NCBI RefSeq assembly: GCF_947568905.1
Contig: NC_079170.1
Coordinates: 40,300,001-40,364,000 of the forward strand
Direction of reading: 5' to 3'
DNA: 64,000 nucleotides
Origin: Ostrea edulis
Lineage: Eukaryota
This document shows positions 10,701-54,608 of this stretch, piece after piece; the first letter of the stretch is position 1, and every line of letters begins with the position of its first letter. The notes beneath the pieces were generated by a model that was not told the origin of the DNA, did no database searches, and was given only the letters and a program-made list of their open reading frames with translations. The position numbers and the translations under genes were made by a program.

Positions 10701-11099
10701 TTACCGAAGGAAAATAATCAAGTTGAATGCATCCACCAAGTTCCTCTTCTAAGACAAAAATATGTTTAGAGTCCCAGTGCCCACATAAACAGTATCTAAA
10801 CTCGCAACACTAGGACATTATGATGCATGAACGACTTTGTTTACGCGAGGTGTTAGCGCAATTATGCATGGTGGTTTAATACATGAAGTTTGGTAAAAGG
10901 TACCACACGGACGAAACATTTGATCTTCCATTATCAAATATCGACGTATTATATTGTTATTTAACACTATGGCTATTTTTTCTCTATCTTCCCGTGATGC
11001 CACCCTTCTCAGTCGTGAAGTCAGTCACAGCCACATCAAAACAGTTCTGAAATTCTTTTTGATTTTCAACTACTCTACGGCGGTGTAAGGAATTCCAGA

Positions 11100-23700: not shown

Positions 23701-23809
23701 AAAGTACACATGTAAAACTAATCTTTGTCATTTTAGAAATCAATACGATAGTTTACCTTTTGTGATCAATAGATGGTTTTGTTTTTCTTTCAGAGCGGCT
23801 GAATTGTGA
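20749..23809 (+). pseudogene. SLC22/Orct-like transporter copy 2, 5'-truncated
   Basis: Starts inside exon 6, fused to a repeat fragment; the remaining exons match copy 1 and carry the same ATGGAACT frameshift (about 21732). Confidence 0.8.
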
Positions 23810-24444
23810 CGAGGAAGACAATAGTTATTGTGCATTATATTTGTCCACAGATAAGTACAGTTTATTGATGTCACCAGGGTACACATAAATTAAACTAATA
23901 GTATAACAATAATCAGTTTGAGTTTTTTCTTAAAATCAAAATATGACACAACGAACGTAAAACATAGCCAACACAAATTCTCAACTTATTCAAAGCGTTT
24001 TGAAGTGTAAGGATATTTACCATGTGGACTCCTAATGACCAGGTACAAATCAGGTCCGGCTTTTGTCATGATGCATCAAACAATCGCGGTGAATGAATGG
24101 TTAAAGGTTCGTGACCGGAAAATCTTTGTTTCGAGCCCGGTTCATGCCTTGGGTGTGTCAAACATTAGGAGTAAAATTAGATTTGTCTGCTCCTTCGACA
24201 AACACTTATCATTCAAAAGTGAGAAGTGAGAGGTATTTCCCATTGGCAAGAATGAACCTTTAGTGCTACGACCCTGGGTGTCTTTCACATGTCATTGTGA
24301 TATATGATTCAAGTGCCTATTACGTGTTAGGTACTGACGATAAAATGTCAAATGACCAGCACTGCCAAGCAGACTCAACCAATTCTAAATCAGAATCCGG
24401 GTCCGCATTTTATAGACTGCTAGAGATGGGGAAATCTGAATCCC

Positions 24445-24445
<1 letters not shown>

Positions 24446-24526
<81 letters not shown>

Positions 24527-24751
24527 AGCACTGAAAAGGCCACGACACTGTTGGTTATTTAAAACTCGAATTTTCTTTATCAAGAGACATATATTACATA
24601 AACAAATAACACGCAAAAACGACAAGTATCGATAAACTACATTGGTGACAAGAGTGATACATTGTTGTACTGAGTGATAAAAATGGTGGTGGTTTCGTTG
24701 TAAAGCGTCTTTACTGACTATGGTTTAGAGAGTTTGTACCATGGTCGGGTC

Positions 24752-24799
<48 letters not shown>
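24446..24799. repeat. (CA)n(TA)n and (TA)n microsatellites flanking an approximately 230-bp insertion
   Basis: The insertion is absent from the paralogous site near 8740; on the minus strand it ends ...gtgtcgtggccttttcagtgctt before (TA)n, like the element at 57.2-57.4 kb. Confidence 0.8.
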
Positions 24800-24802
<3 letters not shown>

Positions 24803-40363: not shown

Positions 40364-40399
40364 AAAGGACATGCTAGAGAAAACCATCAGTCGGCAAAA

Positions 40400-40930
40400 A
40401 TGACGGACTACGAATCACTACATAACCCGGGTACACCACGTTATGCTCTACTGTCAGATCGAGTAGCGTCGTTTGAAAATGCTCCCGAACACTTGCAGAA
40501 GCTATTACCTACCATTGCAGAAGCGGGATACTTTTACAAAGGGTACGGGGATAACACGTGCTGTTTTTATTGCAACTTTGGACTTCAACATTGGGGAGCT
40601 GTCGACAATCCTTGGATACAACATGCTTATTGGTATCCTCACTGTCCTTACCTGAAGTGTAATAAGGGCAAACAATGGGTACGCCAAATGTTCGACGCCG
40701 TTAGCCGAATGCGAGACACGGGGAAGGATTGGGGAGACTTGTCTGTAGACAGTGTGGAGAATCCGGCTACGACGACGGAGAAATGTCATCTGTGTTTAGA
40801 AAGAGACTTGAGAATAGCTTTTTTACCTTGTGGTCATTTATGTACTTGTGCTATATGTGCTACGGGACTGAAACAATGTCCTATTTGTAGACATAGTGTT
40901 GAGCAAGCTGTACGTATTTTTACTTGTTAA
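40400..40930 (+). CDS. iap: Inhibitor of apoptosis protein (single BIR + C-terminal RING), intronless
   Basis: BIR CFYC-x16-H-x6-C preceded by R..SF and AEAGY; RING CHLC...LPCGHLCTCAIC...CPICR; AATAAA overlaps the stop. Confidence 0.93.
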   Translation: MTDYESLHNPGTPRYALLSDRVASFENAPEHLQKLLPTIAEAGYFYKGYGDNTCCFYCNFGLQHWGAVDNPWIQHAYWYPHCPYLKCNKGKQWVRQMFDAVSRMRDTGKDWGDLSVDSVENPATTTEKCHLCLERDLRIAFLPCGHLCTCAICATGLKQCPICRHSVEQAVRIFTC

Positions 40931-40970
40931 TAAATATGTATGATCCCATGAACTTGTGTCATTTATCAAG

Positions 40971-41609
40971 ATGTATACCTACGAGACACTTGAGCCTTTT
41001 CAGTTGAAACATGAATTTACCATGGTGGTGGCTGGACCCTCTAAATCGGGTAAAACGGAATTTGTCAAACAGCTGGTACAAAATACGCAGTGGATTGCAC
41101 CGCCTCCCGAAAAGATAGTATAGTGTTATCGCGAATGGCAGTCCGCGTACGAATCCTTACAGGACAAGGTCACTTTTATCCGCAATATACCTCAAGACGA
41201 TGAGCAGATAGTGGCGGATCTCAGTACGCGTCATCTACTCATTTTTGATGATATGATGGGAGGTAAAGCCATCGAATCGATTGTCGACTGGTTTACGCGC
41301 AAAGCGCATCATCGAAATACCAGTGTCATTTATATCACACAAAATCTGTTTGATCGAGCAGTACAACATCGTACCATCAGTCTGAATGCTCACTATCTTG
41401 TGCTGTTTAAAAATCCTCGAGATAAATCTCAGATTGGGGTGTTAAGTCGGCAATTACAAATGCCGCATTTACTTCCAGCCTATGAGGACGCCACCCGTGT
41501 ACCTCACGGGTATTTACTAGTGGACTTGAGTCCTCAGACGTCGGACGATTTAAGATTAAGAAGTCAACTCTTTACCAACTTGGCTGTGCACATGCCCCCG
41601 AGAGTATAA
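40971..41609 (+). pseudogene. A32/FtsK-like genome-packaging ATPase with an in-frame TAG at 41121-41123
   Basis: Manual translation from ATG 40971 gives Walker A GPSKSGKT, then KIV*CYREWQ, Walker B LLIFDD, ITQNLF and LFKNPRD. The ORF track shows only the part after the stop. Confidence 0.92.
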
Positions 41610-41658
41610 ATAATGTCACATCATGGGCAGGTGTATCATTCGAAAGACAGTCTTCACC

Positions 41659-42531
41659 ATGGGTAGACCTTCCGCGAAGAGTAAATTAGTCAAAACGTTA
41701 CGCCGTTTACAACGGGAACGGGATCCCGTTCAACGGAGCCATCTCATTGAATTAGGACGTAGAGCCTTACTCAACTGGTTTGCGATGGGCGCTCGAAATT
41801 TATTGCGAGGCGTCTTACCAGGCAATAAAATCACTCAGCGGTTCATTCAATCCCATCGCCAAGACTTGAGTGTCATTGCCGATAAGAAGTCCAATGAAGA
41901 AGAGCGTAAAAAAGCCATTTTGAAACGAGGAGGCGCCGGATTCTTAGGAGGGACCATTATCCGTCATTTATTCAAATGGGAAACAGGCCGTAAGCCCCGT
42001 GGGGGACAACCCAAGAAAACCAAGAAACCACGGGCTAAGAAAGCTAAAAAATCACCTCAGAGAATTCCTAAACTCATTATTCGCTTACCTAAGAAGACAC
42101 CTAAGAAGTCCCCTGAGAAATCCCCTAAGAAGACACCTCTCAGGATGAAGAATCCGTTTCCCAATTGGGCTCCAAAGAAAACCCCTCTCATTGTGAAGAT
42201 GCCGTTTCCCAAGGCCACACCCCCCAAGGCCACTAGAACGTTAGCCAATCTGAAAGCCGGATTAGCTCAAAAGAAAATGGAACGATCCATGCATGGGCCT
42301 ATAGGAAGTTCCAGAACCAGTGATACTGCTCTACCGAGTTTTGCTCATACCTTTGGAAGCATGAAATTTCAACCCTTAACCACCTCAACACCGGTTCAGG
42401 TGCAAAAGAAATATAAATGTAAATTTTGCCCTCTGGTCTTCAATGCGAGAGAGAACCGCAATCGTCACGAAGAGACCGTCCATCACAAGCGTTTTGATCC
42501 TAAACATCCGAGTGCCGTTGTCCTGGACTAG
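41659..42531 (+). CDS. Basic Polinton protein: N-terminal domain paralogous to the next ORF, [S/T]PKK-rich region, C-terminal C2H2 zinc finger
   Basis: NLLRGVLP matches NLLKGVIP of the next ORF; KKTPKKSPEKSPKKTP; CKFC-x12-H-x4-H; TATAAA at 41605 and caccATGg context at 41659. Confidence 0.75.
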   Translation: MGRPSAKSKLVKTLRRLQRERDPVQRSHLIELGRRALLNWFAMGARNLLRGVLPGNKITQRFIQSHRQDLSVIADKKSNEEERKKAILKRGGAGFLGGTIIRHLFKWETGRKPRGGQPKKTKKPRAKKAKKSPQRIPKLIIRLPKKTPKKSPEKSPKKTPLRMKNPFPNWAPKKTPLIVKMPFPKATPPKATRTLANLKAGLAQKKMERSMHGPIGSSRTSDTALPSFAHTFGSMKFQPLTTSTPVQVQKKYKCKFCPLVFNARENRNRHEETVHHKRFDPKHPSAVVLD

Positions 42532-42571
42532 GTATAAAAAGGAGGGGGAAGGTGCCCCACCCTTCATTACC

Positions 42572-42901
42572 ATGGCTCATACGAAGAAGTGTGAATGTCG
42601 ATTACGACCTCATTTACCGCTCTTGCAGACGTTAGCGGCTCCTCACTATTCCAGCAAATTAAAGACAGAGGTGTTGAAACATTGTTCCAATGACTGCATT
42701 TTAAAGATTTGTGAGATTGTGTACAATCTATTAAAAGGGGTGATTCCTCTCACCCCTACTCAGAAGCGACAACTGGGTCGAAAGAAACACATCTTAAGAC
42801 GCTTAGTCCGGACTCAACCCGTGAAAAAACGACGAGGTATACTCATCCACCAAAAAGGATTGGGTTCGTTTGTGTGTGGCAAGATTTGTAAGAAATCATG
42901 A
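42572..42901 (+). CDS. Conserved small basic Polinton protein (putative virion core)
   Basis: TATAAA at 42533, ATG at 42572; ICEIVYNLLKGVIPL...QKGLG resembles a recurring Polinton protein family (recognition from memory). Confidence 0.7.
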   Translation: MAHTKKCECRLRPHLPLLQTLAAPHYSSKLKTEVLKHCSNDCILKICEIVYNLLKGVIPLTPTQKRQLGRKKHILRRLVRTQPVKKRRGILIHQKGLGSFVCGKICKKS

Positions 42902-43665
42902 GTCGAAAAATGGTGTTGGTACCGGAAGCGATGCTCAACGAATTAAAAGGCAAATTACCTAAACCTCCCGAATTTACCTCGACTATTGGTTTACGCAGTG
43001 ATTTGGACGAGATTGAACATCGAGATGATTTAACCGAGAAAGAAAAAGTGGGGTTGTACGGGCATCAACTTCATCGCTATCGTCAATATTTACAACAAGC
43101 TCGACATCCCACCCCAGCGACTCTACCCTCCCCAACCACTGCAGCCAGTGCTGCCTCACCACCCTCAGCCGCCTCAGCATCCGATGACTTGGAGGAACAG
43201 ATTATCAAAAGCGTCAATAAACCGGGTCGAAAGAAAGCAGGTTTATTACTCGATCATCTCAAGAAATCCAAAGTGGTGACTTGGAATAAAGAAGGAGAAA
43301 TCAGCTATAGAGGACGCAGGGTTCCCGATTCCAATATTGTGGATTTAATGACCGAAGCCCAGCGACAAAGACCCTTAAGACATCGTGATCCCCCCGCGGG
43401 ATTAGAGGAATTTGCTCAAGCGTTAAAAGAGACTCATGCTCCCAAAGGATATGTGAACAATCGGGATGTTATAAAAGCCATGGACAAACCAGGGAAAATC
43501 AGTACGCCTAGACCTCTAGAGGAAGAGGAGAGCGGATTTCAAGAAATCTCTGGTTTTGACCAATCTTTCTATGAAACTCCCAGACGAATGATGACCCCTA
43601 AAAATATCTGGGAGGCCAGTAAAAAGACATCACGTGAAATTGGAAAATGGTTAAATCTACCATGA
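42898..43665 (+). CDS. Conserved uncharacterised Polinton protein (255 aa)
   Basis: Long ORF in the core block (KMVLVP, VTWNKEGEI, SNIVDL) with ATGA overlaps at both ends. Confidence 0.75.
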   Translation: MSRKMVLVPEAMLNELKGKLPKPPEFTSTIGLRSDLDEIEHRDDLTEKEKVGLYGHQLHRYRQYLQQARHPTPATLPSPTTAASAASPPSAASASDDLEEQIIKSVNKPGRKKAGLLLDHLKKSKVVTWNKEGEISYRGRRVPDSNIVDLMTEAQRQRPLRHRDPPAGLEEFAQALKETHAPKGYVNNRDVIKAMDKPGKISTPRPLEEEESGFQEISGFDQSFYETPRRMMTPKNIWEASKKTSREIGKWLNLP

Positions 43666-44732
43666 AAGCAGAACAGATCTTACAGCGACTGTATTACGAT
43701 CCCAAGACAGGGTATGGGGGAGTCCAGGCGTTGTATCGTCAAGTGCGTCAATTAGGACACAAGATTACCCTGTCTCAAATTCGAGAATGGGTGAAAGCTC
43801 AAGATACCTATACCTTGCATAAACCGATACGGAGGAAATTCAAGCGACGACAAACACGAGTGACGGATATGGATGAACAATGGCAATTAGATTTAGCCGA
43901 TGTCTCCAGCTTGAAACAAGACAATAATGGGTATACGTTTTTATTATGTGCCATTGACGTGCTGTCTAAATATGCCTGGGTCGTGCCTTTAAAACAGAAA
44001 ACGGGGAAAGAAATGATACGAGGCTTACGACGGATTTTTCGAGAGGGACGTCGCCCCGTGCGCATTCAGTCCGATCAAGGAAAAGAATTTACCAATAAAG
44101 AATTTCGTCAAGCCTTCAAATCCATTCATTTCTTTACGACCCGTAATGCCGAAACCAAAGCCAGTATTGTGGAACGTTTTCAACGCACGCTGAAAGCACG
44201 CATGTGGCGGTATTTTACACGTCATAAAACACGACGGTATGTCGATGTCTTGGGGGATCTGGTGTATGGTTACAATCATACCTATCATCGCAGTATCCGG
44301 CGAGCTCCTGCTCAAGTCAATGCCAAGAATGTCTTGACCGTATGGAAAACCTTGTATGGAAAACAGAGTGCCGATACCACGAGTCGCTTGCAAGTGGGGG
44401 ATCGTGTACGCATTAGTAAAGCCAAACGTACGTTTGAAAAAGGATATTTACCGAATTGGACCAAAGAACTGTTTACCATCTCTAGAAAAGTGCCAGGACG
44501 AAACGTCTATCGCATTCAAGATGATCACGGGGAAGAATTAGAAGGAACGTTTTACGAGAAGGAATTACAACAAGTGATTAAAGACGATGATGTCTACGAA
44601 GTGGAGGAAATCTTAGGGTATAAAAAGCGGCGTGTGGGAAAAAAAGTCATTTCAGAAGTCAAAGTGCGTTGGAAAGGATATCCTCCCAGTTTTGATTCAT
44701 GGATTCCGCAAGCGGATCTCATTCGGCCATGA
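43662..44732 (+). CDS. int: Retroviral-like DDE integrase with C-terminal chromodomain
   Basis: Catalytic D (WQLDLAD), D (QSDQGKEF) and E (VERFQRTLK); chromodomain YEVEEIL...VRWKGYPPSFDSWIP. Confidence 0.95.
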   Translation: MKAEQILQRLYYDPKTGYGGVQALYRQVRQLGHKITLSQIREWVKAQDTYTLHKPIRRKFKRRQTRVTDMDEQWQLDLADVSSLKQDNNGYTFLLCAIDVLSKYAWVVPLKQKTGKEMIRGLRRIFREGRRPVRIQSDQGKEFTNKEFRQAFKSIHFFTTRNAETKASIVERFQRTLKARMWRYFTRHKTRRYVDVLGDLVYGYNHTYHRSIRRAPAQVNAKNVLTVWKTLYGKQSADTTSRLQVGDRVRISKAKRTFEKGYLPNWTKELFTISRKVPGRNVYRIQDDHGEELEGTFYEKELQQVIKDDDVYEVEEILGYKKRRVGKKVISEVKVRWKGYPPSFDSWIPQADLIRP

Positions 44733-44986
44733 CCGCCCAGTGGACTTTCTTGGGTGAAAAAGTCCCTCGAGCAGAAATTGTGTATTTTGCACAATTATTC
44801 CTGTGTTTAACCATCATTATCACCTCCGTCGTCATGTTAGCCTTAGGCGATCCCAATCGCGATTTTTGGATGGTGACCTTAAGTTCTCTCGTAGGCTACG
44901 TCATGCCTAGTCCACAAATGACGTTAGCGAGCCCGAATATAAAACAGGATCGACCTTCTTCAGATTCACCAGTTCACCATGGCTAA
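44729..44986 (+). CDS. Small two-helix membrane protein
   Basis: Hydrophobic segments IVYFAQLFLCLTIIITSVVMLALG and FWMVTLSSLVGYVMP; ATG overlaps the integrase stop. Confidence 0.7.
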   Translation: MTAQWTFLGEKVPRAEIVYFAQLFLCLTIIITSVVMLALGDPNRDFWMVTLSSLVGYVMPSPQMTLASPNIKQDRPSSDSPVHHG

Positions 44987-45428
44987 CACACAGTACGCCT
45001 GGGAACAAGAGGGAAAGAAAACGGCATGGTTTGCGGATAAGCAGATGTGTTTGATGCATTGTAAACAACACAAAGTGTTAGATCAACCGGTGTACTTGTA
45101 CAAACGTATACTGATACCTCACGGATGGTCAGCCTTTATCATGAAGACTAAATATCAAGAGTTTCGCTGGAAAGTCAAAGCCTTCTGGGGATTGATGGGA
45201 CGACAAGACGAATCCGATTGGACCTTAAATGAGAGTCCTTGGTTTGACCATTCCGAGGACTGTCTCAGACATTTCAAAGACATGATCAATGAAGGTTATG
45301 ATGTAGCCGATTGCTGGGGAACCCGACACTATCTGGTGATGCGACGACGCTTAGTCCCGAGACGAACCCTGACGTTACCAGACTCGGATGCGTTGATGTG
45401 GGGTGGTGGCCGCGATCAAGAAGAATGA
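44979..45428 (+). CDS. Hypothetical Trp-rich protein (149 aa)
   Basis: ORF overlapping the previous stop, followed by AATAAA at 45462. Confidence 0.6.
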   Translation: MANTQYAWEQEGKKTAWFADKQMCLMHCKQHKVLDQPVYLYKRILIPHGWSAFIMKTKYQEFRWKVKAFWGLMGRQDESDWTLNESPWFDHSEDCLRHFKDMINEGYDVADCWGTRHYLVMRRRLVPRRTLTLPDSDALMWGGGRDQEE

Positions 45429-45540
45429 ATTGAATGTATTGTCATGTTGTATGTTGTTTCAAATAAAAATTGTGAAAAAACAAAACGGTGTTGTGTATAA
45501 ATAGAGAAGGAAACAGAGACAGGGTCTCATTTAAGACATC

Positions 45541-46536
45541 ATGGCTGGAGGAGAAGGGTTTTACATGACTCTGTTGAGTGATGGGTCGATGGAATCGTTT
45601 CCGACAAATACGACGGCTCAATTTAAAACGTTATTGCCACACACCATGGACTTAACGGATGGAGCATGGGAAGTCGGATTGACCGAAATGATGTACTCGG
45701 CCAACTTACAAAACGTATCGGATAGCGAGGCTTATGTGGACGTTCTCATTCCAGATCCGTATACGCAACATGTCCAAGATCCCAACACTTATAAATGGGA
45801 AAGATTTAAGACAGAGAATATGGGCAAAGTCACGATGGCCAGGTGTGAGGTGGTGGTCCCCTGGGCTCTGACGCCATGGTCCCATCTCTTTGCGGGAGGG
45901 GATAGTTTATTTCCCTTCGATATCATTCGCATTCACTTCCGACCCGGAACTTATACACAACCTTTGGCGTTAATCAATGAAATCAACGCAGCCTTAAGGA
46001 GAACCCTGTGGAAAGTATGGAGCGAGTTAGGGAATCCTAACGACGAGGGGAACAACCAGATCTTAGTGTATCACCCCGAGTACGATCGTGTCGAGTATCA
46101 GTTTAATGGGAAAGCACTGAGAACCACCCCCATGTGCATTCGTTTCCCTACGCCCTTAGCGTACAAGCTAGGTCTGGATAGTGACAAAATGATCCTGGGC
46201 GATGAAACCATGACGAAATGGATCAACGTGAATTACTTGGGGAACACGACCATGGATGTCTACGACAATCTGAAAGCCATGTATGTGTATTGTGACATTG
46301 TGGATCCTCAAGTGGTGGGCACCAACAAATTGAAATTATTGAGAGTCGTCCCCTGTACGGGTCAATACGACGATCGACAACAAGCCCGTTGGGAACCGAT
46401 TCGAGCCGAATATTTGAAACTGAGTAAGAAATATTTCGATACCATTGAGGTACACATCATGAATTCTTTAGGGCGTCCTATGGGGTTTTTAAATGGGCGC
46501 TCCTTAGTCAAACTTCATTTCCGCAAAGTGTATTGA
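45541..46536 (+). CDS. Minor capsid (penton, single jelly-roll) protein
   Basis: FYMTLLSD...WEVGLTE at the N-terminus, YVYCDIVDPQVVG and LVKLHFRK at the C-terminus are typical of Polinton pentons; TATAAA at 45496. Confidence 0.85.
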   Translation: MAGGEGFYMTLLSDGSMESFPTNTTAQFKTLLPHTMDLTDGAWEVGLTEMMYSANLQNVSDSEAYVDVLIPDPYTQHVQDPNTYKWERFKTENMGKVTMARCEVVVPWALTPWSHLFAGGDSLFPFDIIRIHFRPGTYTQPLALINEINAALRRTLWKVWSELGNPNDEGNNQILVYHPEYDRVEYQFNGKALRTTPMCIRFPTPLAYKLGLDSDKMILGDETMTKWINVNYLGNTTMDVYDNLKAMYVYCDIVDPQVVGTNKLKLLRVVPCTGQYDDRQQARWEPIRAEYLKLSKKYFDTIEVHIMNSLGRPMGFLNGRSLVKLHFRKVY

Positions 46537-46539
46537 AAG

Positions 46540-46683
46540 ATGAAGTACCATCGAGGAGTCAGACGCCAGAAAGGACACGGAATCTGGTTTCTCATTCCAT
46601 GGATTGCCAATGCCATTGTGAGTCAAGCGGGCCAAGGAAAGAAGAGAAAGAGACGGCGTAAAAAGTATAAAAAGCGGGTGTAA
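46540..46683 (+). CDS. 47-aa basic micro-protein resembling adenovirus pX/Mu precursor (not in ORF track)
   Basis: Manual translation: MKYHRGVRRQKGHGIWFLIPWIANAIVSQAGQGKKRKRRRKKYKKRV*. Confidence 0.65.
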   Translation: MKYHRGVRRQKGHGIWFLIPWIANAIVSQAGQGKKRKRRRKKYKKRV

Positions 46684-46710
46684 CCCCTAACGAAGTTCAT
46701 TTACATCAAG

Positions 46711-47403
46711 ATGCACTACCATAAAGGTTTAATACGGCAGCAGGGTCACGGGCTTGGAGCCCTGCTGGGAATAGCCAGCAAAGTGGCGGGTCCCCTGATC
46801 AGTGGATTATTAGGTGGAGCCCCCGCACAACAGCAACAACAACAACAGCGTCCTGTCTATCAAGAGAGATATTATGATTACGACCGCCCTTATCGCTCTT
46901 ATCAGAGGAGACGACGTAGAAGCCATCCAACAGAAGAATATGATCCAGAATCTGAAAAGCAGAAGGGAAAAGGATTTTTCACCGATTTACTCAAATCGGG
47001 GGCTAAAAGTGCCTTAAAGGCTGCTGCTAAAACAGGGATGGATGTGTTAGATAATAAACGATCACTCAAAGACGCTCTCAAGACACACGGTGCCCAAGCC
47101 CTGAAAGAGACAGCAGGGTATGCCCGTAGGCGAAGATCTCGAAAAGCCCCATCCAAACGAGGAAGAAAAGCACGCACAGGAATACTCAGGAAGCCTGGAA
47201 CCACGACCCTCAAAAGAAAACAGGTGGGAAAACAGGTGGGAATACAGGAAGGAAAAGGATTTGTTAAAAGAAAACAACGTATCTTAGCTCGGGGAGGGCC
47301 TCATAAGAGACCTAGGAAGCAACCTAGGAAGCGATCTAGGAAGGGAGGTAGGAAGCTAGTGAAAAGGGGTAAGCCAAAACGCTCTCTGGATATTTTCGAC
47401 TGA
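46711..47403 (+). CDS. Arg/Lys-rich putative virion core protein
   Basis: QQGHGLGALLG amphipathic start, highly basic C-half ending DIFD, located just upstream of MCP; TATAAA at 46666. Confidence 0.75.
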   Translation: MHYHKGLIRQQGHGLGALLGIASKVAGPLISGLLGGAPAQQQQQQQRPVYQERYYDYDRPYRSYQRRRRRSHPTEEYDPESEKQKGKGFFTDLLKSGAKSALKAAAKTGMDVLDNKRSLKDALKTHGAQALKETAGYARRRRSRKAPSKRGRKARTGILRKPGTTTLKRKQVGKQVGIQEGKGFVKRKQRILARGGPHKRPRKQPRKRSRKGGRKLVKRGKPKRSLDIFD

Positions 47404-47482
47404 GAACCCTATAAAAAGGGAGTGAGAAGGAGACCAGAACACATTTGATCCCAGTTCACGCTGAGTAACACATCGTTCCAAT

Positions 47483-48886
47483 ATGATGCACAGAGAATCT
47501 TGCGCTTGTGGCACCAGCAGTTTAGAACTGTTTAAAGTGCCCCCGACCAACGTCACTTTAGAAGATTCGAAATGGATGGAATATTACCCCATTTCCAGTA
47601 CCCTCAACTCGGATACGGCTCCGATTGAATTTGAAATCAAAGGACAAGGAGATGAATATCTGGATTTATCCCAAACTTATCTCCAGATGGTCTGTAAATT
47701 CACGAAAGCCAATGGAACGAATCTCACAGGAGGCCATTCGACCTCCACCCCCGTGAATAACATTCTCCATTCCTTGTTCAGTGAAATCGATGTCAGTCTC
47801 AATGGAAAAGTCATTACCCCGGGGACGGATACTTATCCCTACAAAGCGTATCTGGAGAAATTGCTGTCTTATGCACCCAAGACTCTGGAAACCCAGATGA
47901 GAGCCTGTAGCTTGTGGGAAAAAGATACGGCAGGACATATGGATGAGGTCAAATTAAAAGCTCTGGCTCAAACTCCTGTGGAATTTGCAGTAGTGAATAA
48001 CAAAGTCAACATCGCGGCCGTCATCCCGACTCCGGAGTATCCGGATGATTCCAAGAATGTAGGGTTGAGAAAACGTCACGAGAAGATTACAGACAGTAAG
48101 GAGATCGTGTTGATGGATCGATTACATCTGGATTTGTTTGAGCAAGAGAAATGTCTCCCTAATGGTTTGGATGTCCGTCTCAGATTCAATCGCGCTCGAC
48201 CCCAGTTCTACATGATGACCGATGCCGGGAGTAGTGGGAAAGTGGTCATTCAAAGTATGATCTTGTGGGTGAGGAAAGTCAAACCTGTGCCGAGTATCAT
48301 TAATCTCATCAATCAGCAACTGAGTACTCAAACGGCGAAATATCCATTGAGACGAGTGGAAGTGAAAACCTTCACCGTTCCTAGTGGCACCCAATCTAAA
48401 ATCACCGATCATCTGTTTCAAGGACAGATGCCTAAACTGATCGTGTTGGGTTTTGTGGACAATGCGGCTTTTAATGGGGATAATACCAGAAACCCCTTTC
48501 ATTTCCAAAATGAGAGAGTCAAGAAATTAGAAATCAGTATCAATGGAGAAATGATGGAAACCCGACCTTTGGAACCTAATTTCACCGACGATCAGTACCT
48601 GAGATCGTATTTGAGTCTGTACAAAGGCTTGGGAAAATTAGGCCAGGACTGGGCTCCGGACATTACCCTGGAAGAGTATAAAAACGGTTACACCCTCTGG
48701 TGTGTGGATTTCACGAAAGATCAAGAAGCCCAGACGGATAAATTTCATCTCATACAGACGGGGAACTTGAGAGTGGAAGTGCAATTTGCCGCCAACGTAG
48801 CCAGGACCTTAAACTGTGTGGTGTATGCCGTGTTCGACAATCTGCTAGAAATCAACAAACAACGAGAAGTCAGCATCGATTACTAA
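47483..48886 (+). CDS. Major capsid protein (double jelly-roll)
   Basis: 467 aa; N-terminal HRESCAC...[24 protein letters not shown] and LHLDLFEQ motifs typical of Polinton MCPs; TATAAA at 47410. Confidence 0.92.
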
Positions 48887-48893
48887 GAGAGAG

Positions 48894-49391
48894 ATGGATA
48901 CTCAGCAATTGAGAGATGTTTTACAACGAGATTTAGGACCGGCGTTTGCAGGTGTGTATCCTCGAGATGTCATACCTGAGCTGTTACCTCATCACAAAGC
49001 CATCGTGGTGAATACAGACCCTCACGATCGCCCTGGAGCGCATTGGGTCTGTTTGTATTTGAGTAGCCCTACCGTCGAATATTTTGATTCTTACGGATTA
49101 CCTCCCAGCCATAAAGACATCCAAGACTTTATTCAACGCCACGGAGAGACTTGGATTCATAACACCCATTGTTATCAAGATTTGAATATGGATGTCTGTG
49201 GACAATACTGTGTGTATTTTTTACATCAACGCCATCGACACAGAAGCACCGTACAAGAATGGTTACTTCCCTGGAAAGGCACGGCCTTACAACGCGATCG
49301 TTTTGTGGCTGATTGGTTTAAAGAGACCTTCCGAAAACCGAGAACCCATCAAGGACAAACTTGTCAATGTCAAAGACTGAATGTATTGTAA
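48894..49391 (+). CDS. Adenain-like cysteine maturation protease
   Basis: Catalytic motifs GAHW (His), YFDSYG (Asp) and Q-x5-CGQYC (Gln, Cys). Confidence 0.93.
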   Translation: MDTQQLRDVLQRDLGPAFAGVYPRDVIPELLPHHKAIVVNTDPHDRPGAHWVCLYLSSPTVEYFDSYGLPPSHKDIQDFIQRHGETWIHNTHCYQDLNMDVCGQYCVYFLHQRHRHRSTVQEWLLPWKGTALQRDRFVADWFKETFRKPRTHQGQTCQCQRLNVL

Positions 49392-49422
49392 ACTATGTTA
49401 TTGTTATTGTTCATAGTTGGAG

Positions 49423-49431
49423 TTTAATAAA
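49423..49431. terminator. Overlapping bidirectional poly(A) signals (AATAAA plus, ATTAAA minus)
   Basis: TTTAATAAA lies between the convergent protease and 98-aa genes. Confidence 0.5.
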
Positions 49432-49476
49432 ACGTTGGAAAAAAAATTTTTTTTTTCTTGTCATTGTAATCAACCA

Positions 49477-49519
49477 TGTCTTTTCAAAAAGAATGGGTAG
49501 CCCTGAAAAGGGCTGTTTT
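49477..49519 (-). terminator. Histone-type 3' stem-loop plus downstream element (SL1)
   Basis: Minus strand reads AAAAC-AGCCCT-TTTC-AGGGCT-ACCCA-TTCTTTTT-GAAAAGACA; stem-loop at 49499-49514. Confidence 0.8.
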
Positions 49520-49593
49520 CTTTCTCTCTCTGTTCTTGGTCTTTTCTCTTCTTCTTCTTCTCTCTTCTCTTCTCCTTCTCTTCTCTGTCCCCC

Positions 49594-49890
49594 TCACTGT
49601 CTGTTCTTCTTCTTCTTTCTTCTCTTCTTTTTCTGCTCCTCCGGGGGTTGCTCGTGGTCAAACACAAAAACAGGCAACCACCCGTGTTTAAAAAACAATC
49701 TCCCCGGAGGCCGCTGCACCACTTCTAACTCTGCGTCCCAGTTTTCCTCAGGCGGGGGCAGATCCTGGCTCATGGGCGGTGGGGGAAGAGCCTCCCGTGA
49801 GGCCGGCGGGGCAATCTCTTGGTCCCAATCCTCCTCGCATTTGTAACAATAATCATTCACTGTAGGGTCTGGTCCTACTCTACGGCTCAT
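49594..49890 (-). CDS. 98-aa Pro-rich protein with CxxC and a basic NLS-like tail
   Basis: ORF with its own promoter motif (49956-49981) and a 3' stem-loop; ends KKKRRKKKKNRQ. Confidence 0.65.
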   Translation of the reverse strand: MSRRVGPDPTVNDYCYKCEEDWDQEIAPPASREALPPPPMSQDLPPPEENWDAELEVVQRPPGRLFFKHGWLPVFVFDHEQPPEEQKKKRRKKKKNRQ

Positions 49891-50064
49891 GGTTCTGGTT
49901 CCTTAAAAAATCGGAATGCCCGATTTTTGACGTTGCGCTCGTTTAAAAAGGCGAGAGCGCGGACGTCCTTGAAAACATCCCCTACCTCAGATGGCTGACG
50001 TCATGTTGATGACTCATCAAAAAACACTGTATAAATAGGTCACTTGTTACCATTTTTCTCAATC
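49891..50064. promoter_or_regulatory. Divergent promoter with CRE, AP-1 and TATA boxes
   Basis: TGACGTCA 49996-50003, TGACTCA 50010-50016 and TATAAA 50030 (+); the 26-nt motif at 49956-49981 is shared with 51992-52017. Confidence 0.65.
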
Positions 50065-50460
50065 ATGTCGTTTGAACGGTACGTGCACGATGAGAAAGAT
50101 GTACTAGTGTGTGGGTATTGCCGAGGACCTTGGAGAACTTGTGGTTGTTTTCATTATAAAAAAGAAAACATCCTGGCCAAACATAAGTGGATAAAGTATA
50201 TGGCAGAGCTGAATTATTGTCCCTTTGTCTATAAATGTTGTGGTCACACTAGAGAACCCTGGCTACCGTGTAAGTGTCCGCAGCATTGTACCATCACCCC
50301 TGAAGAAGAAATAGCACATAAGGACTGTACCTGTGAGATCTGTCAGGAGTTTAGAGAGCGCTGGACTCAGAGAAAGTTTAAACCCCACCTGTTTCAACAT
50401 TGTCCTTACAGTCAAGAACCCCGGTTAACGTGTACCTGTGAGACCTGTCAACCAGCATGA
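50065..50460 (+). CDS. Cys-rich putative zinc-binding protein
   Basis: Repeated C..PW..CxC and CTCExC motifs; ATG 30 nt after TATAAA. Confidence 0.7.
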   Translation: MSFERYVHDEKDVLVCGYCRGPWRTCGCFHYKKENILAKHKWIKYMAELNYCPFVYKCCGHTREPWLPCKCPQHCTITPEEEIAHKDCTCEICQEFRERWTQRKFKPHLFQHCPYSQEPRLTCTCETCQPA

Positions 50461-50954
50461 CGGTGACGGATCTACGAGGAGATGTATTATCTCTACCTTG
50501 GGTGGATGCTATTGTACAACAATGTAACTGTTTAACGGTGAAACCTCATGGATTAAGTCAACGTATTGCCGACCGATTTCCTTGGGCTAATCTGTATGCG
50601 ACCCGACAACCTTTAGGACGGAGAAATTTAGCTATAGCAGCGGATCGAGGAATACCGGGTACTGTGTGTATTATGCCTCGTTCTACTCATCCTGATGTGA
50701 TCTGTTTGTTAGCGCAATGGGATTACGGGAGAGGCACTCAACGCTTACCCTTGTATGCCGATACCCCCGAACAACGTGAACTTTGGTTTCAACAATGTTT
50801 ACAGGAATTAGGCACTTTGTCTTACCAGACTTTAGCGTTTCCTTATCGTATTGGATGTGGATTAGCCGGAGGCAATTGGGCTCATTATAGACAATGGATT
50901 TGTGACTTTGCTTATCAGTATCATAAACATGTTTACATTGTCAAGAAAATGTAA
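50457..50954 (+). CDS. Macrodomain protein (TARG1/DarG/Poa1-like ADP-ribose processing)
   Basis: GD, QQCNC, GLS..IA.RFP and AFPYRIGCGLAGGNW motifs. Confidence 0.85.
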   Translation: MTVTDLRGDVLSLPWVDAIVQQCNCLTVKPHGLSQRIADRFPWANLYATRQPLGRRNLAIAADRGIPGTVCIMPRSTHPDVICLLAQWDYGRGTQRLPLYADTPEQRELWFQQCLQELGTLSYQTLAFPYRIGCGLAGGNWAHYRQWICDFAYQYHKHVYIVKKM

Positions 50955-51044
50955 CTTTATTATAGCTTTATTCTAGCTATTACTTGTGTTAATAAAACTT
51001 TTTTAAAACAAACTTGTGTGTTTCTTGATTTTTGCCATAAAAAG

Positions 51045-51086
51045 TGTCTTTTCAAAAAAGTTGGTGGCCCTGAAAAGGGCCGTTTG
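51045..51086 (-). terminator. Histone-type 3' stem-loop plus downstream element (SL2)
   Basis: Minus strand reads CCAAAC-GGCCCT-TTTC-AGGGCC-ACCAA-CTTTTTT-GAAAAGACA; stem-loop at 51066-51081, 24 nt after the stop of 51105-51890. Confidence 0.88.
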
Positions 51087-51104
51087 GTCCTAAGGACCGA
51101 CTTT

Positions 51105-51890
51105 TCATTCCCTGCTTCCGGTAAACCGGCATAACGGGCACCGTCCCCGGGTGTGTCGCCGCTCCTGTAACTCTTCCACGCACGAGCAGCAAGCTGGGCG
51201 CTGCCCACATCCCCTACACGTAATTCCAGAGTGTACCCTGTCTTGCCAGCAGACAGGACACTTAAACCAGATAGGAACCGCCCTATCTGCCCAGCCAGGG
51301 ACAGTCATAGGGTGGTTCCTCGGGGGATGAGTTGCCACCGGTGCGTGGGTTGGTCTCGGTGGCGGAGTCCTCCCTGCAAACCGGATGGTAGGTGGTGGGG
51401 GTCTTGCAGGGGCTGCTGGTCTCGGTGGTGATGCTGTGTCTGCCACCAACAGCGACGGACTCTGACGTGGGCTGGGAGGTGGTGCGGGGGACGGTGACCT
51501 CGGTGAATAGTCCACCGGTGACGCTGGTGAGTCGCTCATCGGCACCGGGCTGTATTCCACTGGTGCCGATGGGATCGCTGGTGGTGGTGTTGTAGGCGTC
51601 GCCGGGGAGTAAGGTGGTGGTGGTGAGGGTGGCTGTGGGGCCCGTCGGCGCGGTCTCGTACCCGTGGAGATTCGAGCGGTGCGGCGGCGTCCACTCCCTT
51701 CATACTCTGCCCGCACCCGACAGATGATCTCACGGACCCCACTCTGGTCGAAAGGGGAGAAGGTGCTCAGGTCGTTCTCAGAACGCACGACCCAATTCTC
51801 CCCTACCCGTTCCTCAGCCACCACTACCAGCCGGTACCGAAAGCCAGGCAAGGTCTGGAAATTGTAGAGCGGGTCTCTTCTTGCAGCCAT
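51105..51890 (-). CDS. Pro/Ser-rich protein with C-terminal all-Cys RING finger (putative E3 ligase)
   Basis: CPVC-x10-CRGC-x5-CCSC-x13-CPLC; PPPY and three YSP motifs including YSPRSPS. Confidence 0.8.
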   Translation of the reverse strand: MAARRDPLYNFQTLPGFRYRLVVVAEERVGENWVVRSENDLSTFSPFDQSGVREIICRVRAEYEGSGRRRTARISTGTRPRRRAPQPPSPPPPYSPATPTTPPPAIPSAPVEYSPVPMSDSPASPVDYSPRSPSPAPPPSPRQSPSLLVADTASPPRPAAPARPPPPTIRFAGRTPPPRPTHAPVATHPPRNHPMTVPGWADRAVPIWFKCPVCWQDRVHSGITCRGCGQRPACCSCVEELQERRHTRGRCPLCRFTGSRE

Positions 51891-51978
51891 TCTTCTTCTT
51901 CTTTCTTCTTAAATAATCTTCAAAAATCTTCTACAACTGTGCTGGATCACCAGTGAAGCGAACTGGCGAGTGCGCCGG

Positions 51979-52061
51979 TATATATCAGGAAAGCGCGGAC
52001 CTCCTCGAAAACATCCCTCGCTTCGGAGACGAAGCCAAGATGGTGGCCGTCAAAATGGCGG
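51979..52061 (-). promoter_or_regulatory. Promoter of RING gene: TATATA, shared 26-nt motif, YY1-like CAAAATGGCGG
   Basis: 51992-52017 is 24/26 identical to 49956-49981, with a TATA-like box 6-7 nt downstream in both. Confidence 0.6.
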
Positions 52062-52453
52062 ATTTGTGCTTTCGAGTAGAGAGTTTTTTCTCATTTGTCT
52101 TTTTCTAGACATTCGATATCTGTGCAAGGTAGATTTAATCTGATAGATTCTGAGACGGCGAATGCGTTAAACTTATTTTTATTTTGCTACGTCGCATAGT
52201 TTTCAAAGAAACAGCGGTTAAAGAGGTCGAGTCGAGGTTCAATGTTTCTTCACCCCCTCTTTAAAAATTTATTTCTCGACCATGTACATCCCTAAAAACA
52301 TCTCATAAGGTCTATTCGATAGAAAACACCTTATTTGATTCGATTTTCACTCTACCTTTAGGATTTTCTGGATTCCTCAACAAATAAACCCTTCTCTGAG
52401 AGACTCAACCAAACACAGCTTTCGTGTAAACAATTTTATTCATGTCACATATT

Positions 52454-52672
52454 TCAAATACATAACTCCCACACACAACACCAATGCACATGTCTTTTTA
52501 AAATAGGGTCCAACATTTTTTCCATTTCTCGAATCCTGCGTTGAAATCGATAGCGATCAGCGGCTACAGTCATCCAGATACTTGTCCGGTCTTCTTCGGG
52601 TAACAGATACACTTCATTATGATCCAGATTAAAAGTCACACGTTTAACTTGACGTACATCTCTCGAAGACAT
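52454..52672 (-). CDS. PPP1R15 (GADD34/ICP34.5/DP71L)-like PP1 adaptor, 72 aa
   Basis: RVxF motif KRVTF followed by R..IW...AADRYRFQRRI...MLDPIL, matching the eIF2alpha-phosphatase recruiting domain. Confidence 0.88.
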   Translation of the reverse strand: MSSRDVRQVKRVTFNLDHNEVYLLPEEDRTSIWMTVAADRYRFQRRIREMEKMLDPILKRHVHWCCVWELCI

Positions 52673-52941
52673 CGTAGTCTGATTTTCTCGATTTCTGCTC
52701 TGTCTGTGGGTCGAATTCGTTTCAATTCCTGGCCCATTAAATGAATCAGTACTAAGGCTTGCGGGGTGATCCGGTTCTCGATCAAATACTGACAGAGACA
52801 TGGATAGTTCTTTAAGCTGATGGGAAATAATTCTTCTCGCATATAGTGTAACACAAATTCAATCTGCTCAGAATGAATGTCTGTGAGATAATCCAATACA
52901 TAAACTATCGCTTTCTCTGTGATGTGGTCACTGCTGGCCAT
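52636..52941 (-). CDS. Alpha-helical protein, paralog A of the Bcl-2-like triplet
   Basis: Aligns with the two upstream ORFs (LVLIHLMGQELKRIRP..AEIEKI..CLREMY). Confidence 0.6.
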   Translation of the reverse strand: MASSDHITEKAIVYVLDYLTDIHSEQIEFVLHYMREELFPISLKNYPCLCQYLIENRITPQALVLIHLMGQELKRIRPTDRAEIEKIRLRCLREMYVKLNV

Positions 52942-53275
52942 CCTCCGGGAATAAATGAAATGAATTAAGTTCTTCACACTTTATGTATACTTCTCGAAGC
53001 CAGTCCTTGGTGATACTTTCAATCTCGGCGGTTTTTTCAGGCATGCGTTTCTTGAATTCCTCCCCCAGGACATAAATTAACATCAATCCCGCATCGTTAT
53101 AGAGATTGATGTATATCCGGTTCCGTAGATCTGTATATTCGTCCAGAGTCATTGGAAACACTCCCGCTATCAGAAATTTTTTAGCGAATTGAAACACCGT
53201 ATCGTCTTGCATTTTCTCGACCCATTCTAATGCATGGTTATGCGCTTTTTCTGCGATGTTGTCACTTTCAGCCAT
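52928..53275 (-). CDS. Alpha-helical protein, paralog B of the Bcl-2-like triplet
   Basis: LMLIYVLGEEFKKRMP..AEIESI..WLREVY; own TATAAAA at about 53311-53317. Confidence 0.6.
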   Translation of the reverse strand: MAESDNIAEKAHNHALEWVEKMQDDTVFQFAKKFLIAGVFPMTLDEYTDLRNRIYINLYNDAGLMLIYVLGEEFKKRMPEKTAEIESITKDWLREVYIKCEELNSFHLFPEDGQQ

Positions 53276-53311
53276 GGTTTGTAAATGAAAAAATTCCAAA
53301 ACGTTCTTGTT

Positions 53312-53644
53312 TTATAACAGGGCCGCCATTCCTTTCATACGAATCAGTTCCACGAATCCTTTTTGTAGACAATCGCGTAAGATCCGATCAATGTCACTCA
53401 TCTGGTCTGGAAGATTCTGTTTCAATTCCTCAGCATACAAATAAATCATGAGTAAACGTCCCGTATTGGTATTCTCCGCTAATGAATCAGCAATCCGTTG
53501 AAAACTATGTACATTTCTGACCTCCGGTGACATCTGTTGTACAAATTGACGAGCATTTTGAATGTGAGGGTCATGTAAGGCCACGTTCATACATTGTAGT
53601 ACATAACTATATCCATTTATTCTCGTAGTACCACTGCCGCCCAT
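53312..53644 (-). CDS. Putative viral Bcl-2-like protein, paralog C
   Basis: BH1-like FQRIADSLAENTNTGRLLMIYLY (cf. NWGR); MGGSGT possible myristoylation; TATAAATA at 53675-53682. Confidence 0.6.
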   Translation of the reverse strand: MGGSGTTRINGYSYVLQCMNVALHDPHIQNARQFVQQMSPEVRNVHSFQRIADSLAENTNTGRLLMIYLYAEELKQNLPDQMSDIDRILRDCLQKGFVELIRMKGMAALL

Positions 53645-53698
53645 AGTAAATAACGAACGTTCAGAAAACACCTGTATTTATAGGTAAAGGTTATGCAT

Positions 53699-53748
53699 CA
53701 CGTGATCAAACACCTGCACCACGTGATCAAACACCTGTACGTCAGCTG
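53699..53748. promoter_or_regulatory. E-box-rich direct repeat in divergent promoter
   Basis: CACGTGATCAAACACCTG at 53699-53716 and 53720-53737; CAGCTG at 53743. Confidence 0.6.
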
Positions 53749-53783
53749 GTTTTTCTACAGTCATTCTTGTCTGACCTTCAGTC

Positions 53784-54290
53784 ATGGATACACGGAGAAT
53801 TTTAAGAGCGAGACACCGCCGCCAGGGAATACAACCAGTGAAGAATTTAACCATAGTAGAAGATTATGTAGACGAGATGGAGATCTGGGACAATTTAGTA
53901 CAGAGATGTCGCCATCGATTACGCTGGGGCCGATCTAAAAATTGGTGTTTTGACTATGTATTGCGGTCACATGAAACAGTGGAGGATATTTACCTGCGTT
54001 TAAGTGACATGTACCTGAAAAATTCCCCCCTCATACAGTACATGATTTACCAGTTTTACACGTTATTGAACGGCACTCAAAAAGTATCGGGATTTATTCG
54101 ACTGGAGAAACCACGTTACCGGAGAAGTGTATGGGTATTGTTTTGGGATGCACACTGGATGTGGGAAACCGTCGAAGAGATACGTTTCCCCGGGAGAAGA
54201 GCTCGACAATTAGTACAACACATTATATCCGAAGATCATGACTTACACGTGTATATAGAAGAACCTGCGTATGAAGCCGGCCATTTTTAA
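53784..54290 (+). CDS. Derived CRESS-virus Rep (HUH) origin-binding-like domain with catalytic motifs lost
   Basis: KNWCF (motif I) and YMIYQ-x6-G-x5-GFIRLEK-x13-AHW have the same spacing as nanovirus-type Rep YLVYQ-x6-G-x5-GYIEMKK-x13-AHF; HxQ is replaced by KVS and there is no YxxK. Confidence 0.65.
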   Translation: MDTRRILRARHRRQGIQPVKNLTIVEDYVDEMEIWDNLVQRCRHRLRWGRSKNWCFDYVLRSHETVEDIYLRLSDMYLKNSPLIQYMIYQFYTLLNGTQKVSGFIRLEKPRYRRSVWVLFWDAHWMWETVEEIRFPGRRARQLVQHIISEDHDLHVYIEEPAYEAGHF

Positions 54291-54309
54291 AAATAAAAAC
54301 TTCATGCAC

Positions 54310-54325
54310 AGCCCTTTTTAGGGCT
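54310..54325 (+). terminator. Histone-type 3' stem-loop (SL3)
   Basis: AGCCCT-TTTT-AGGGCT followed by AC, starting 20 nt after the stop; AATAAA at 54292; no downstream GAAAAGA. Confidence 0.6.
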
Positions 54326-54376
54326 ACTTTAAACACCAATATAAGTTCCATTCCACTAAAGTCAATGTGTACCAAT

Positions 54377-54450
54377 GTGCACTAGCACGCGCTGGTCGCG
54401 AGAAACCGGCTTTTCAAGTTCAATTAGTGCACTAGCACGCGCTGGTCGCG
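54377..54450. repeat. 24-bp direct repeat x2 (period 50)
   Basis: GTGCACTAGCACGCGCTGGTCGCG at 54377-54400 and 54427-54450, each followed by a GAAACCGG(C/T)TTTTC-like motif. Confidence 0.9.
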
Positions 54451-54608
54451 CGATGTTCTAGCTGAAACCGGTTTTTCCAGAAAAAGATGATGCAACCACG
54501 TGCTCCCCACGTGCCCCTCACGAGACAATAGTCTAGACATTTTGCTGGCTATAAAAGCGGAGCCCCAGTGTCAGTCCTCAATCGATCTTCAATCACCTTC
54601 CAGAAGAC

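Follow-up and report, generated by a model that had tools for sequence, protein, structure and literature searches.

How do genes that encode no histone come to carry the signals of replication-dependent histone genes? The question is raised by a Polinton/Maverick element of the oyster Ostrea edulis, which lies in a 64,000-nucleotide (nt) stretch of contig NC_079170.1 (NCBI RefSeq assembly GCF_947568905.1, positions 40,300,001 to 40,364,000 of the forward strand); this whole stretch is called the window here, and feature positions are numbered within it. A sequence-only reading of the window had proposed that three 16-nt hairpins behind three unrelated open reading frames (ORFs) of the element are signals for SLBP (stem-loop-binding protein) and for U7 snRNP (small nuclear ribonucleoprotein), and that the element sends selected messenger RNAs (mRNAs) through the host histone pathway. 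For two of the hairpins, SL1 and SL2, that proposal is well supported by a match to host histone genes, by conservation and by a promoter element, whereas SL3 could not be upheld as a U7-type end. The genes concerned, ORF98 and ORF261, each combine a promoter element of the host H1 and H2A/H2B type, a single open frame, and a host-type stem-loop followed by GAAAAGA at the host spacing. To judge from these features, they are very probably non-histone genes modelled at both ends on the replication-dependent histone genes of the host, and we consider it quite likely that both are expressed as such histone genes are.

The 3′ signals on which this view is built are the following.

49499–49514, minus strand: SL1 hairpin, AGCCCT-TTTC-AGGGCT, differing by a single base from that of host H1 and followed by the flank ACCCA at 49494–49498; inferred mRNA end at about 49494
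49479–49485, minus strand: SL1 downstream element core, GAAAAGA, 14 nt past the stem
51066–51081, minus strand: SL2 hairpin, GGCCCT-TTTC-AGGGCC, the same as that of host H2B, flanked by AAAC on the 5′ side and ACCAA on the 3′ side (51061–51065); inferred mRNA end at about 51061
51047–51053, minus strand: SL2 downstream element core, GAAAAGA, 13 nt past the stem, in a flank nearly identical to the host H2A flank
51020–51026, minus strand: second downstream motif, [G/A]AGAAAC, about 40 nt past the SL2 stem, with a degenerate SL1 copy at 49453–49459
54310–54325, plus strand: SL3 hairpin, AGCCCT-TTTT-AGGGCT, the same as that of host H1, without an ACC[A/C]A flank or downstream element
54292–54297, plus strand: AATAAA upstream of SL3

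All three hairpins were confirmed at the positions and on the strands first proposed, each in the sense orientation behind its ORF, with 79 nt (ORF98), 23 nt (ORF261) and 19 nt (ORF168) between stop codon and stem. In each, as in the histone class, a stem of 6 bp with G as its second base ends in a U-A pair that closes a U-rich loop of 4 nt; folding of each strand predicts the same 6-bp/4-nt structure (z of −2.06, −3.28 and −1.95, against −1.82 for a host H2B control), and in an alignment of 13 rows all 78 stem cells are paired. A degenerate hairpin pattern gave 3 matches where 0.25 were expected; it was built from these same three hairpins, and the fair test is therefore the Rfam model RF00032. 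That model, which the sequence-only reading had recommended, placed SL2 (40.2 bits) above its gathering cut-off of 34 and left SL1 (32.0 bits, E 8.5e-6) and SL3 (22.3 bits, E 0.036) below it, with no further match at E ≤ 5 in the rest of the 20-kb element. The alternation of the outer pair between A-U and G-C, put forward earlier as covariation, is real; it is not independent evidence, because A-U is the host H1 type and G-C the host core-histone type. The purine tracts reported 14 nt (SL1) and 13 nt (SL2) past the stem were confirmed, with GAAAAGA starting there in both cases. An ACC[A/C]A flank together with a purine-rich downstream element was found at SL1 (ACCCA) and SL2 (ACCAA) but not at SL3, where the 3′ flank reads ACTTT and the purine-rich element is absent. 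A single class of three hairpins was consequently rejected, as SL3 lacks the downstream element, the flank and the promoter element described below. That SL1 and SL2 are real as histone-type signals is, on sequence comparison, well supported.

Comparison with the histone 3′ ends of the host, for which one locus was taken for each of five classes, showed agreement of SL1 and SL2 in hairpin, core and spacing. GAAAAGA starts 14 nt past the stem in host H1, H2A, H2B, H3 and H4; behind SL2 it starts at 13 or 14 nt in sister copies of the element and at 14 nt in two further subfamilies (2 and 3). When the host genome was searched with RF00032, 75 candidates were scored, and the best 30 loci comprised 3 host H2B genes and 27 fragments of the element family. 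The second motif, [G/A]AGAAAC, also lies 41 to 43 nt behind host H1, H2B, H3 and H4 (loci L032 and L033), is absent from H2A and from some H1 copies, and recurs at about +40 in cassettes of the other subfamilies; it is possibly a second processing or termination element. A host SLBP gene was found.

Histone-type hairpins also stand elsewhere in the host genome. A solitary H2A variant gene has its own stem-loop and downstream element (L055:4518-5090), and isolated hairpins with a downstream core have no obvious gene upstream (L051:4988, L059:5049, L061:4977). A second, unrelated family of non-histone repeats encodes a 132-amino-acid orphan protein and gives at least 151 matches, many in tandem arrays (L052:4437-5100, which is host C3:40457083-40457478; L195-L206; L222). 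In this family a histone-type hairpin was present in 10 of the 12 best loci, mainly with GAAAAG at +14; some of its genes are flanked by inverted cassettes, and none of the histone promoter motif was seen.

The 5′ ends of the two genes, which had been overlooked in the first reading, supply the second line of evidence.

49955–49980, minus strand: promoter element of histone type upstream of ORF98, agreeing with that of host H1 in 25 of 26 nt, at −90 from the ATG as against −93 in H1
51992–52017, minus strand: promoter element of histone type upstream of ORF261, agreeing with that of host H1 in 24 of 26 nt, with a TATA-like box at −94

The 260 nt upstream of each of the element's ORFs were scored against five host histone promoters, with a 26-mer as the unit and 200 shuffles as the control. 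Only ORF98 and ORF261, two of 23 ORFs, match the H1 26-mer; the other 21 score 15 to 19 against the five promoters, the shuffles reaching 19 at most, and ORF168, at 16 of 26, has no histone element. A shorter form of the element occurs within the shared H2A/H2B promoter of the host. A 19-nt core is found twice in the window, upstream of exactly ORF98 and ORF261, and 314 times in the genome, as against 0 for the reversed control. Of the 49 promoter motifs in long loci, 39 are accompanied by a strict hairpin that lies no more than 1.6 kb away on their own strand; four of the remaining ten lie near one-mismatch hairpins (L060, L215 and two in L219), and the others include rearranged or truncated remnants. 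That the promoter match to host H1 strengthens the case for SL1 and SL2 is well supported. The GGTCCG end of the element resembles the vertebrate H4 site II/HiNF-P element, and a HiNF-P identity is a lead. The accessible parts of PMC5706932, PMC6027317 and PMC3128520 offered no consensus against which it could be tested.

The promoter match also bears on the view that the hairpins act as DNA, or as terminators between convergent genes, since it would be left unexplained. This view draws on the location of SL1 and SL2 at the convergent junctions of protease with ORF98 and of macrodomain gene with ORF261, where the plus strand reads as GAAA-loop hairpins. Yet the asymmetric flank, the downstream core and the +40 motif are all oriented with the minus-strand genes, and the plus-strand neighbours own an AATAAA 34–36 nt past their stops, so that we regard it as highly improbable.

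Do the signals persist because they are used? Copies of the element were compared by means of its 467-amino-acid gene, which, like a 331-amino-acid ORF, we take to encode a capsid protein from size and gene order, searches having given no informative match. At least 91 copies of this gene are present in the host genome, 78 at 97% identity or more and 13 at 87–88%, and a tree of 19 rows resolves three subfamilies (support 100/100, 100/100 and 100/99). Between the window's subfamily and the other two, four-fold sites are 0.38–0.55 identical and the spacer falls to 0.29–0.57, whereas 26 of 28 signal positions are kept (SL1 against L053, SL2 against L057; binomial 1.5e-5 at q = 0.55). Exact matches to hairpin plus element number 292 genome-wide, with 0 in the control. 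Among the capsid-selected copies on host contigs C1–C3, 29 of 33 carry the two signals in exact form, 3 carry a single one and 1 carries neither, and SL1 with its element is present in 27 of 30 capsid-selected loci; these tallies, made mainly of young copies, show prevalence and not selection. In three of four additional copies from subfamily 2, each of the two genes comes with promoter and signal; the fourth is without the accessory region. In a set of 25 loci, largely picked by hairpin or promoter match, ORF98 has hairpin and element in 21 of 21 cases; all 16 copies of ORF261 have the hairpin and 15 of them the element; and of 16 ORF168 copies 11 have the hairpin, none of these 11 with the element. 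The five ORF168 copies without SL3 include all four subfamily-3 copies inspected. Conservation of position and orientation in related elements, which the sequence-only reading had named as one test of its proposal, thus extends across three subfamilies for SL1 and SL2 and fails for SL3 in subfamily 3.

Traces of the signals were met further afield. Hairpin and downstream core are spelled out in translation by 2 of 128 stored proteins, P0039 (JGI) and P0065 (named Magallana gigas), both remote homologs of the RING-like part of ORF261 with frame-shifted C-termini; these read-through proteins suggest that histone-type signals may occur in the Pacific oyster as well. Other remote RING homolog clusters (P0061, P0071 and P0082) lie on Logan contigs whose lengths recur, at about 1.27, 1.65 and 1.49 kb, as discrete transcripts might. 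A variant ORF261 allele (L047, L011) has a different N-terminus and an ORF98-type promoter and is without the H3-like motif discussed below; it is a natural control and a sign of cassette swapping.

Several points weigh against histone-like expression of the two genes. The choice of most of the 25 loci by the very signals that they tally is one. The copies of subfamily 1 are young, with four-fold sites 96–100% identical, and their agreement is therefore no evidence of selection. Between subfamilies 1 and 2 the ORF261 cassette is unusually alike, mostly 83–90% in protein and 88–92% in the promoter region as compared with 71–75% in the adjacent macrodomain gene; recombination may therefore explain part of its conservation, and only the subfamily-3 and ORF98 comparisons are fairly independent. 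A host U7 gene was not found: RF00066 gave one non-significant match, the 15, 79 and 49 matches to three patterns did not exceed the control level, and folding of all of the 15 and of 30 of the 79 showed no convincing 3′ hairpin. Pairing can therefore be argued only from the universal UCUUU box of U7, which is complementary to the downstream core (PMC5054213). No transcript end was seen, and none of the listed datasets that contain the sequence is recorded as RNA; among four of nine runs compared, all as contigs, contigs from X1 and X2 span the SL2 region, where ORF261 does not align at 80%, and an X3 contig crosses SL3 to 54333, coverage that is not counted as evidence. Poly(A) signals lie downstream of both genes. 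Searched for in 12 histone loci from other animals, the promoter element was not detected, the best scores being 12–16 of 19.

This last result makes the promoter element lineage-specific and points to capture from an oyster histone gene, from which it might be argued that the signals are no more than neutral relics, left by histone DNA that was recently taken from the host and then passed among copies through recombination; the cassettes are visibly exchanged among genes and subfamilies, and the majority of copies are young. Against this, the host match is confined to functional islands (the promoter 26-mer, hairpin, flank, GAAAAGA and +40 motif), no histone coding remnant exceeds seven residues, the 26 signal positions persist despite near-saturated silent divergence, and translated traces of the signals survive in remote homologs. 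Neutral relics are, in our judgement, a very unlikely explanation.

The poly(A) signals call for closer attention. Those listed in the first reading as backups at 49423 (ATTAAA), 50956 and 50967 do lie downstream on the minus strand, 165 nt past the stop of ORF98 and 132 and 143 nt past that of ORF261, whereas the one at 54292 lies upstream of SL3 and so is no downstream backup. It could be that the cassettes are mainly a promoter plus an SLBP-binding or stabilizing hairpin, and that most messages run on to the downstream ATTAAA/AATAAA signals and are polyadenylated. On some genuine histone pre-mRNAs either machinery assembles (PMC9756948), and in Drosophila oocytes maternal histone mRNAs are polyadenylated in an SLBP-dependent, U7-independent manner (PMC11997800). 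However, the downstream core and its spacing of 13–14 nt, which are relevant solely to U7, are kept in three subfamilies although the spacer letters change, and the poly(A) signals fall within stretches shared with the AT-rich ends of the genes that converge on them; mainly polyadenylated messages are therefore unlikely. For SL3 the same literature offers a precedent, human H4C11, whose poly(A) signal directly precedes the hairpin and may be in competition with SLBP (PMC9756948). SL3 is probably one of two things, with about even chances between them: a hairpin that binds SLBP on a message with a poly(A) tail, or a duplicate that is redundant and dispensable.

If ORF98 and ORF261 are indeed built as histone genes, they would be transcribed together with the histone genes; SLBP would bind the stem-loops and U7 snRNP would cut about 5 nt past the stem, giving non-polyadenylated mRNAs that would be most abundant during S phase of dividing or germ cells and decay thereafter. 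A second form, with a poly(A) tail, may arise from the downstream poly(A) signals, or these may serve the convergent neighbours only. The signals would most likely have been captured from an oyster-lineage histone gene and then duplicated and swapped between genes as modular cassettes.

What, then, would the element express in this way? None of its 23 ORFs belongs to a histone Pfam family, and the genes behind the three hairpins are unlike one another.

49594–49890, minus strand: ORF98, the SL1 gene, a small proline-rich orphan with a repeated acidic tryptophan motif (EDWD.E/ENWD.E) and a basic C-terminus, with no Pfam family
51105–51890, minus strand: ORF261, the SL2 gene, with a small N-terminal domain, an H3-tail look-alike, a proline/serine-rich linker and a C-terminal RING-like zinc finger
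53784–54290, plus strand: ORF168, the SL3 gene, a degenerate CRESS-Rep-like fragment (PF02407, E 0.015, weak), with a promoter lacking the histone element

One homolog of ORF98 was found; the E[D/N]WD.E repeat of ORF98 is reminiscent of the SLIP1-binding motif of SLBP and other acidic tryptophan docking motifs. Homologs of ORF261 at 96% identity carry the source label Ostrea edulis. The cysteine pattern of its RING-like end is conserved, with weak Pfam zf-RING_2 matches in homologs (E 0.01–0.13); its atlas neighbours at 0.81–0.83 are RING proteins and serve as leads only. The predicted model is poor (predicted local distance difference test score of 49), and a fold search with it gave no match at E ≤ 0.001. 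Three YSP repeats in the linker (residues ~94–145) bring to mind the heptads of the RNA polymerase II tail. An atlas search with ORF168 returned nothing useful.

The most suggestive feature of these products is a short segment of ORF261.

51660–51680, minus strand: H3K9-to-Ile look-alike TARISTG, residues 71–77 of ORF261, six of seven residues identical to T6–G12 of host H3 (TARKSTG)

This match was first spotted by eye and tested afterwards; it is the best among the 23 ORFs and was attained by 12 of 20,000 shuffles. In 39 genomic copies the position of K9 is occupied by isoleucine in 19, by methionine in 18 (15 by pattern, 3 by eye) and by lysine in none, the motif being absent from 2; among 14 homolog representatives that span it, one of them from the host, the residue is Met in 7, Ile in 3, Thr in 2, Asn in 1 and Lys in 1. 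ORF261 thus presents the histone-tail context with Met or Ile in place of the target lysine that marks the K-to-M/I inhibitors of SET-domain enzymes, and a SUV39H gene was found in the host. At H3K27, isoleucine alone equalled methionine in inhibition of PRC2, SETD2 is inhibited by K36M and K36I and not by K36L, Q or R, and K9M is recognised by G9a (PMC4973290). In fission yeast K9M dominantly blocks Clr4, aided by H3K14 ubiquitin (PMC8167812). An antagonist of H3K9 methylation, acting as a putative pseudo-substrate inhibitor, is accordingly a possible role for ORF261, to which we give a little under an even chance.

We hold it just as probable that the segment is a look-alike and no methyltransferase poison, with TAR[I/M]ST serving as a basic kinase site, a localisation signal or a decoy for H3 S10 readers or kinases, or arising by chance. 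The segment sits in an arginine-rich stretch, the residues beside the K9 position vary (TVRM, TAQM, TAKI), some alleles and remote homologs are without the motif, and the match was noticed ahead of any test. What speaks for more than likeness is that all 37 genomic copies with the motif have Met or Ile at the K9 position, as do 10 of the 14 homolog representatives; the position alternates between exactly the two inhibitory residues (PMC4973290) and never becomes Leu. The inhibitor role is weakened by the brevity of the motif (seven residues), by its absence from 2 of the 39 copies and from the distant RING clade, including the Magallana-type homologs P0008 and P0024, by the weak binding of Clr4 to K9M when H3K14 ubiquitin is lacking (PMC8167812), and by the fact that the Lys-to-Ile inhibition met in the literature read concerns K27 and K36, not K9 (PMC4973290). 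A separate observation concerns the element's integrase, whose C-terminus is a chromodomain (PF00385, 44597–44720), of interest next to an H3K9 look-alike.

Taken as an inhibitor, ORF261 would offer an H3K9-to-Met/Ile pseudo-substrate to enzymes of the SUV39H, G9a or SETDB1 type, while its RING-like finger may attach ubiquitin to the enzyme thus bound, or to a partner; acting when new chromatin needs to be re-methylated, it would let the element escape silencing. The cargo, as read from sequence, points to chromatin timing rather than to the resistance to poly(A)-dependent shutoff that had been suggested at first. It is tempting to join the parts into a transposon programme against silencing, in which a histone promoter element and SLBP/U7 ends would deliver in S phase an H3K9M/I mimic fused to a RING that traps or destroys H3K9 methyltransferases, and in which histone-type ends on mobile genes would be a recurrent strategy, such ends being present also in the unrelated family of the 132-amino-acid orphan. 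This larger scheme is offered tentatively; we think it somewhat more likely to be wrong than right.

The element in which these genes reside is of a familiar kind.

35955–55948, plus strand: Polinton/Maverick element of 19,994 bp, with 349-nt terminal inverted repeats (99%), AGTAGT...ACTACT termini and a 6-bp target duplication, TGCATT

A Pfam search of the 23 ORFs matched pPolB (PF03175) and the rve integrase (PF00665), together with a Peptidase_C5 protease (E 4.9e-4, slightly short of the curated cut-off). A packaging ATPase Walker A motif was found, and in the window copy a stop at 41121–41123 splits the Walker A part from the remainder. With its inverted repeats, 6-bp duplication, pPolB, integrase, ATPase motif, C5 protease and length of about 20 kb, the element is a Polinton/Maverick. 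Accessory genes of counter-defence type lie at 40400–40930, 50457–50954, 52454–52801 and 53312–53644, and comprise an IAP (BIR plus RING), a macrodomain-like gene, a PP1-binding GADD34-like gene (PF10488) and a weakly Bcl-2-like gene; about 300 nt of the macrodomain gene (50555–50858) are gone in the young copies L009, L020, L022, L025, L029 and L030, in which both signals are retained. The host flank holds a large degenerate duplication (about 5200–12200 and 20900–28900, spaced by some 15.7–16.5 kb) with 420-nt tandem units. No Polinton relatives were detected in viral or metagenome contigs with the capsid-gene query. The hairpin patterns gave 0 and 1 matches in viral sequences, the single match being antisense within a phage gene, and a hairpin scan of metagenomes gave 22 loci, none with Polinton genes, of which 17 are histone loci and 5 have no recognisable gene upstream.

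A search of the Polinton literature found no description of RNA ends or promoter elements of histone type, nor of K-to-M/I look-alikes; subscription papers and supplements lay outside its scope, so that absence is unproven. The accessible parts of PMC13525598, PMC10294476 and PMC5011920 held nothing on histone-type ends of Polintons. A 2026 preprint found no histone-processing proteins in large DNA viruses, and Polintons and transposons went unmentioned in the part accessible (10.64898/2026.10.14.759114). Histone mRNAs are called the sole messages processed by SLBP and U7 (PMC5054213, PMC11997800). The signal is thus of a known kind, in a use not found described in the literature searched. If the reading is true, non-histone mobile genes that pass through SLBP and U7 would break the histone-only rule and would be the first natural non-histone substrates found in that search. 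ORF98 and ORF261 would then reveal which cis elements suffice, among them the +40 motif common to host histones, which we have not seen described. Since its capsid gene is present in at least 91 copies, some 78 of which are nearly identical, the element could also draw on SLBP, U7 or the histone transcription factors in a farmed bivalve. A natural K9-to-Met/Ile mimic, if true, would be the H3K9 counterpart of the K27M-type inhibitors and would offer a concrete answer to the persistence of Polintons as active elements in animal genomes.

Set beside known systems, the element resembles the Polintons/Mavericks (Polintoviruses) in all the hallmarks by which it was classified. ORF261 resembles the oncohistones H3K9M, K27M/I and K36M/I, and EZHIP, in presenting an H3-tail context with Lys replaced by Met or Ile; it differs in that its candidate inhibitory motif is seven residues long, has the K9 context and lies inside a RING-like protein of a mobile element. 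Short H3-like motifs in viral proteins have precedents in the influenza NS1 tail, SARS-CoV-2 ORF8 and adenovirus protein VII. To our knowledge these viral mimics keep the lysine or act as decoys and are made from ordinary viral mRNAs, none being tied to histone-type transcription and 3′ ends. The closest likeness is to the replication-dependent histone genes of metazoans. SL3 departs from these in lacking the downstream element. Set apart by a non-histone cargo carried in a mobile, virus-like element, ORF98 and ORF261 share with the histone genes the hairpin, its flanks, the downstream core and its spacing, the promoter element, and the form of short single-frame genes.

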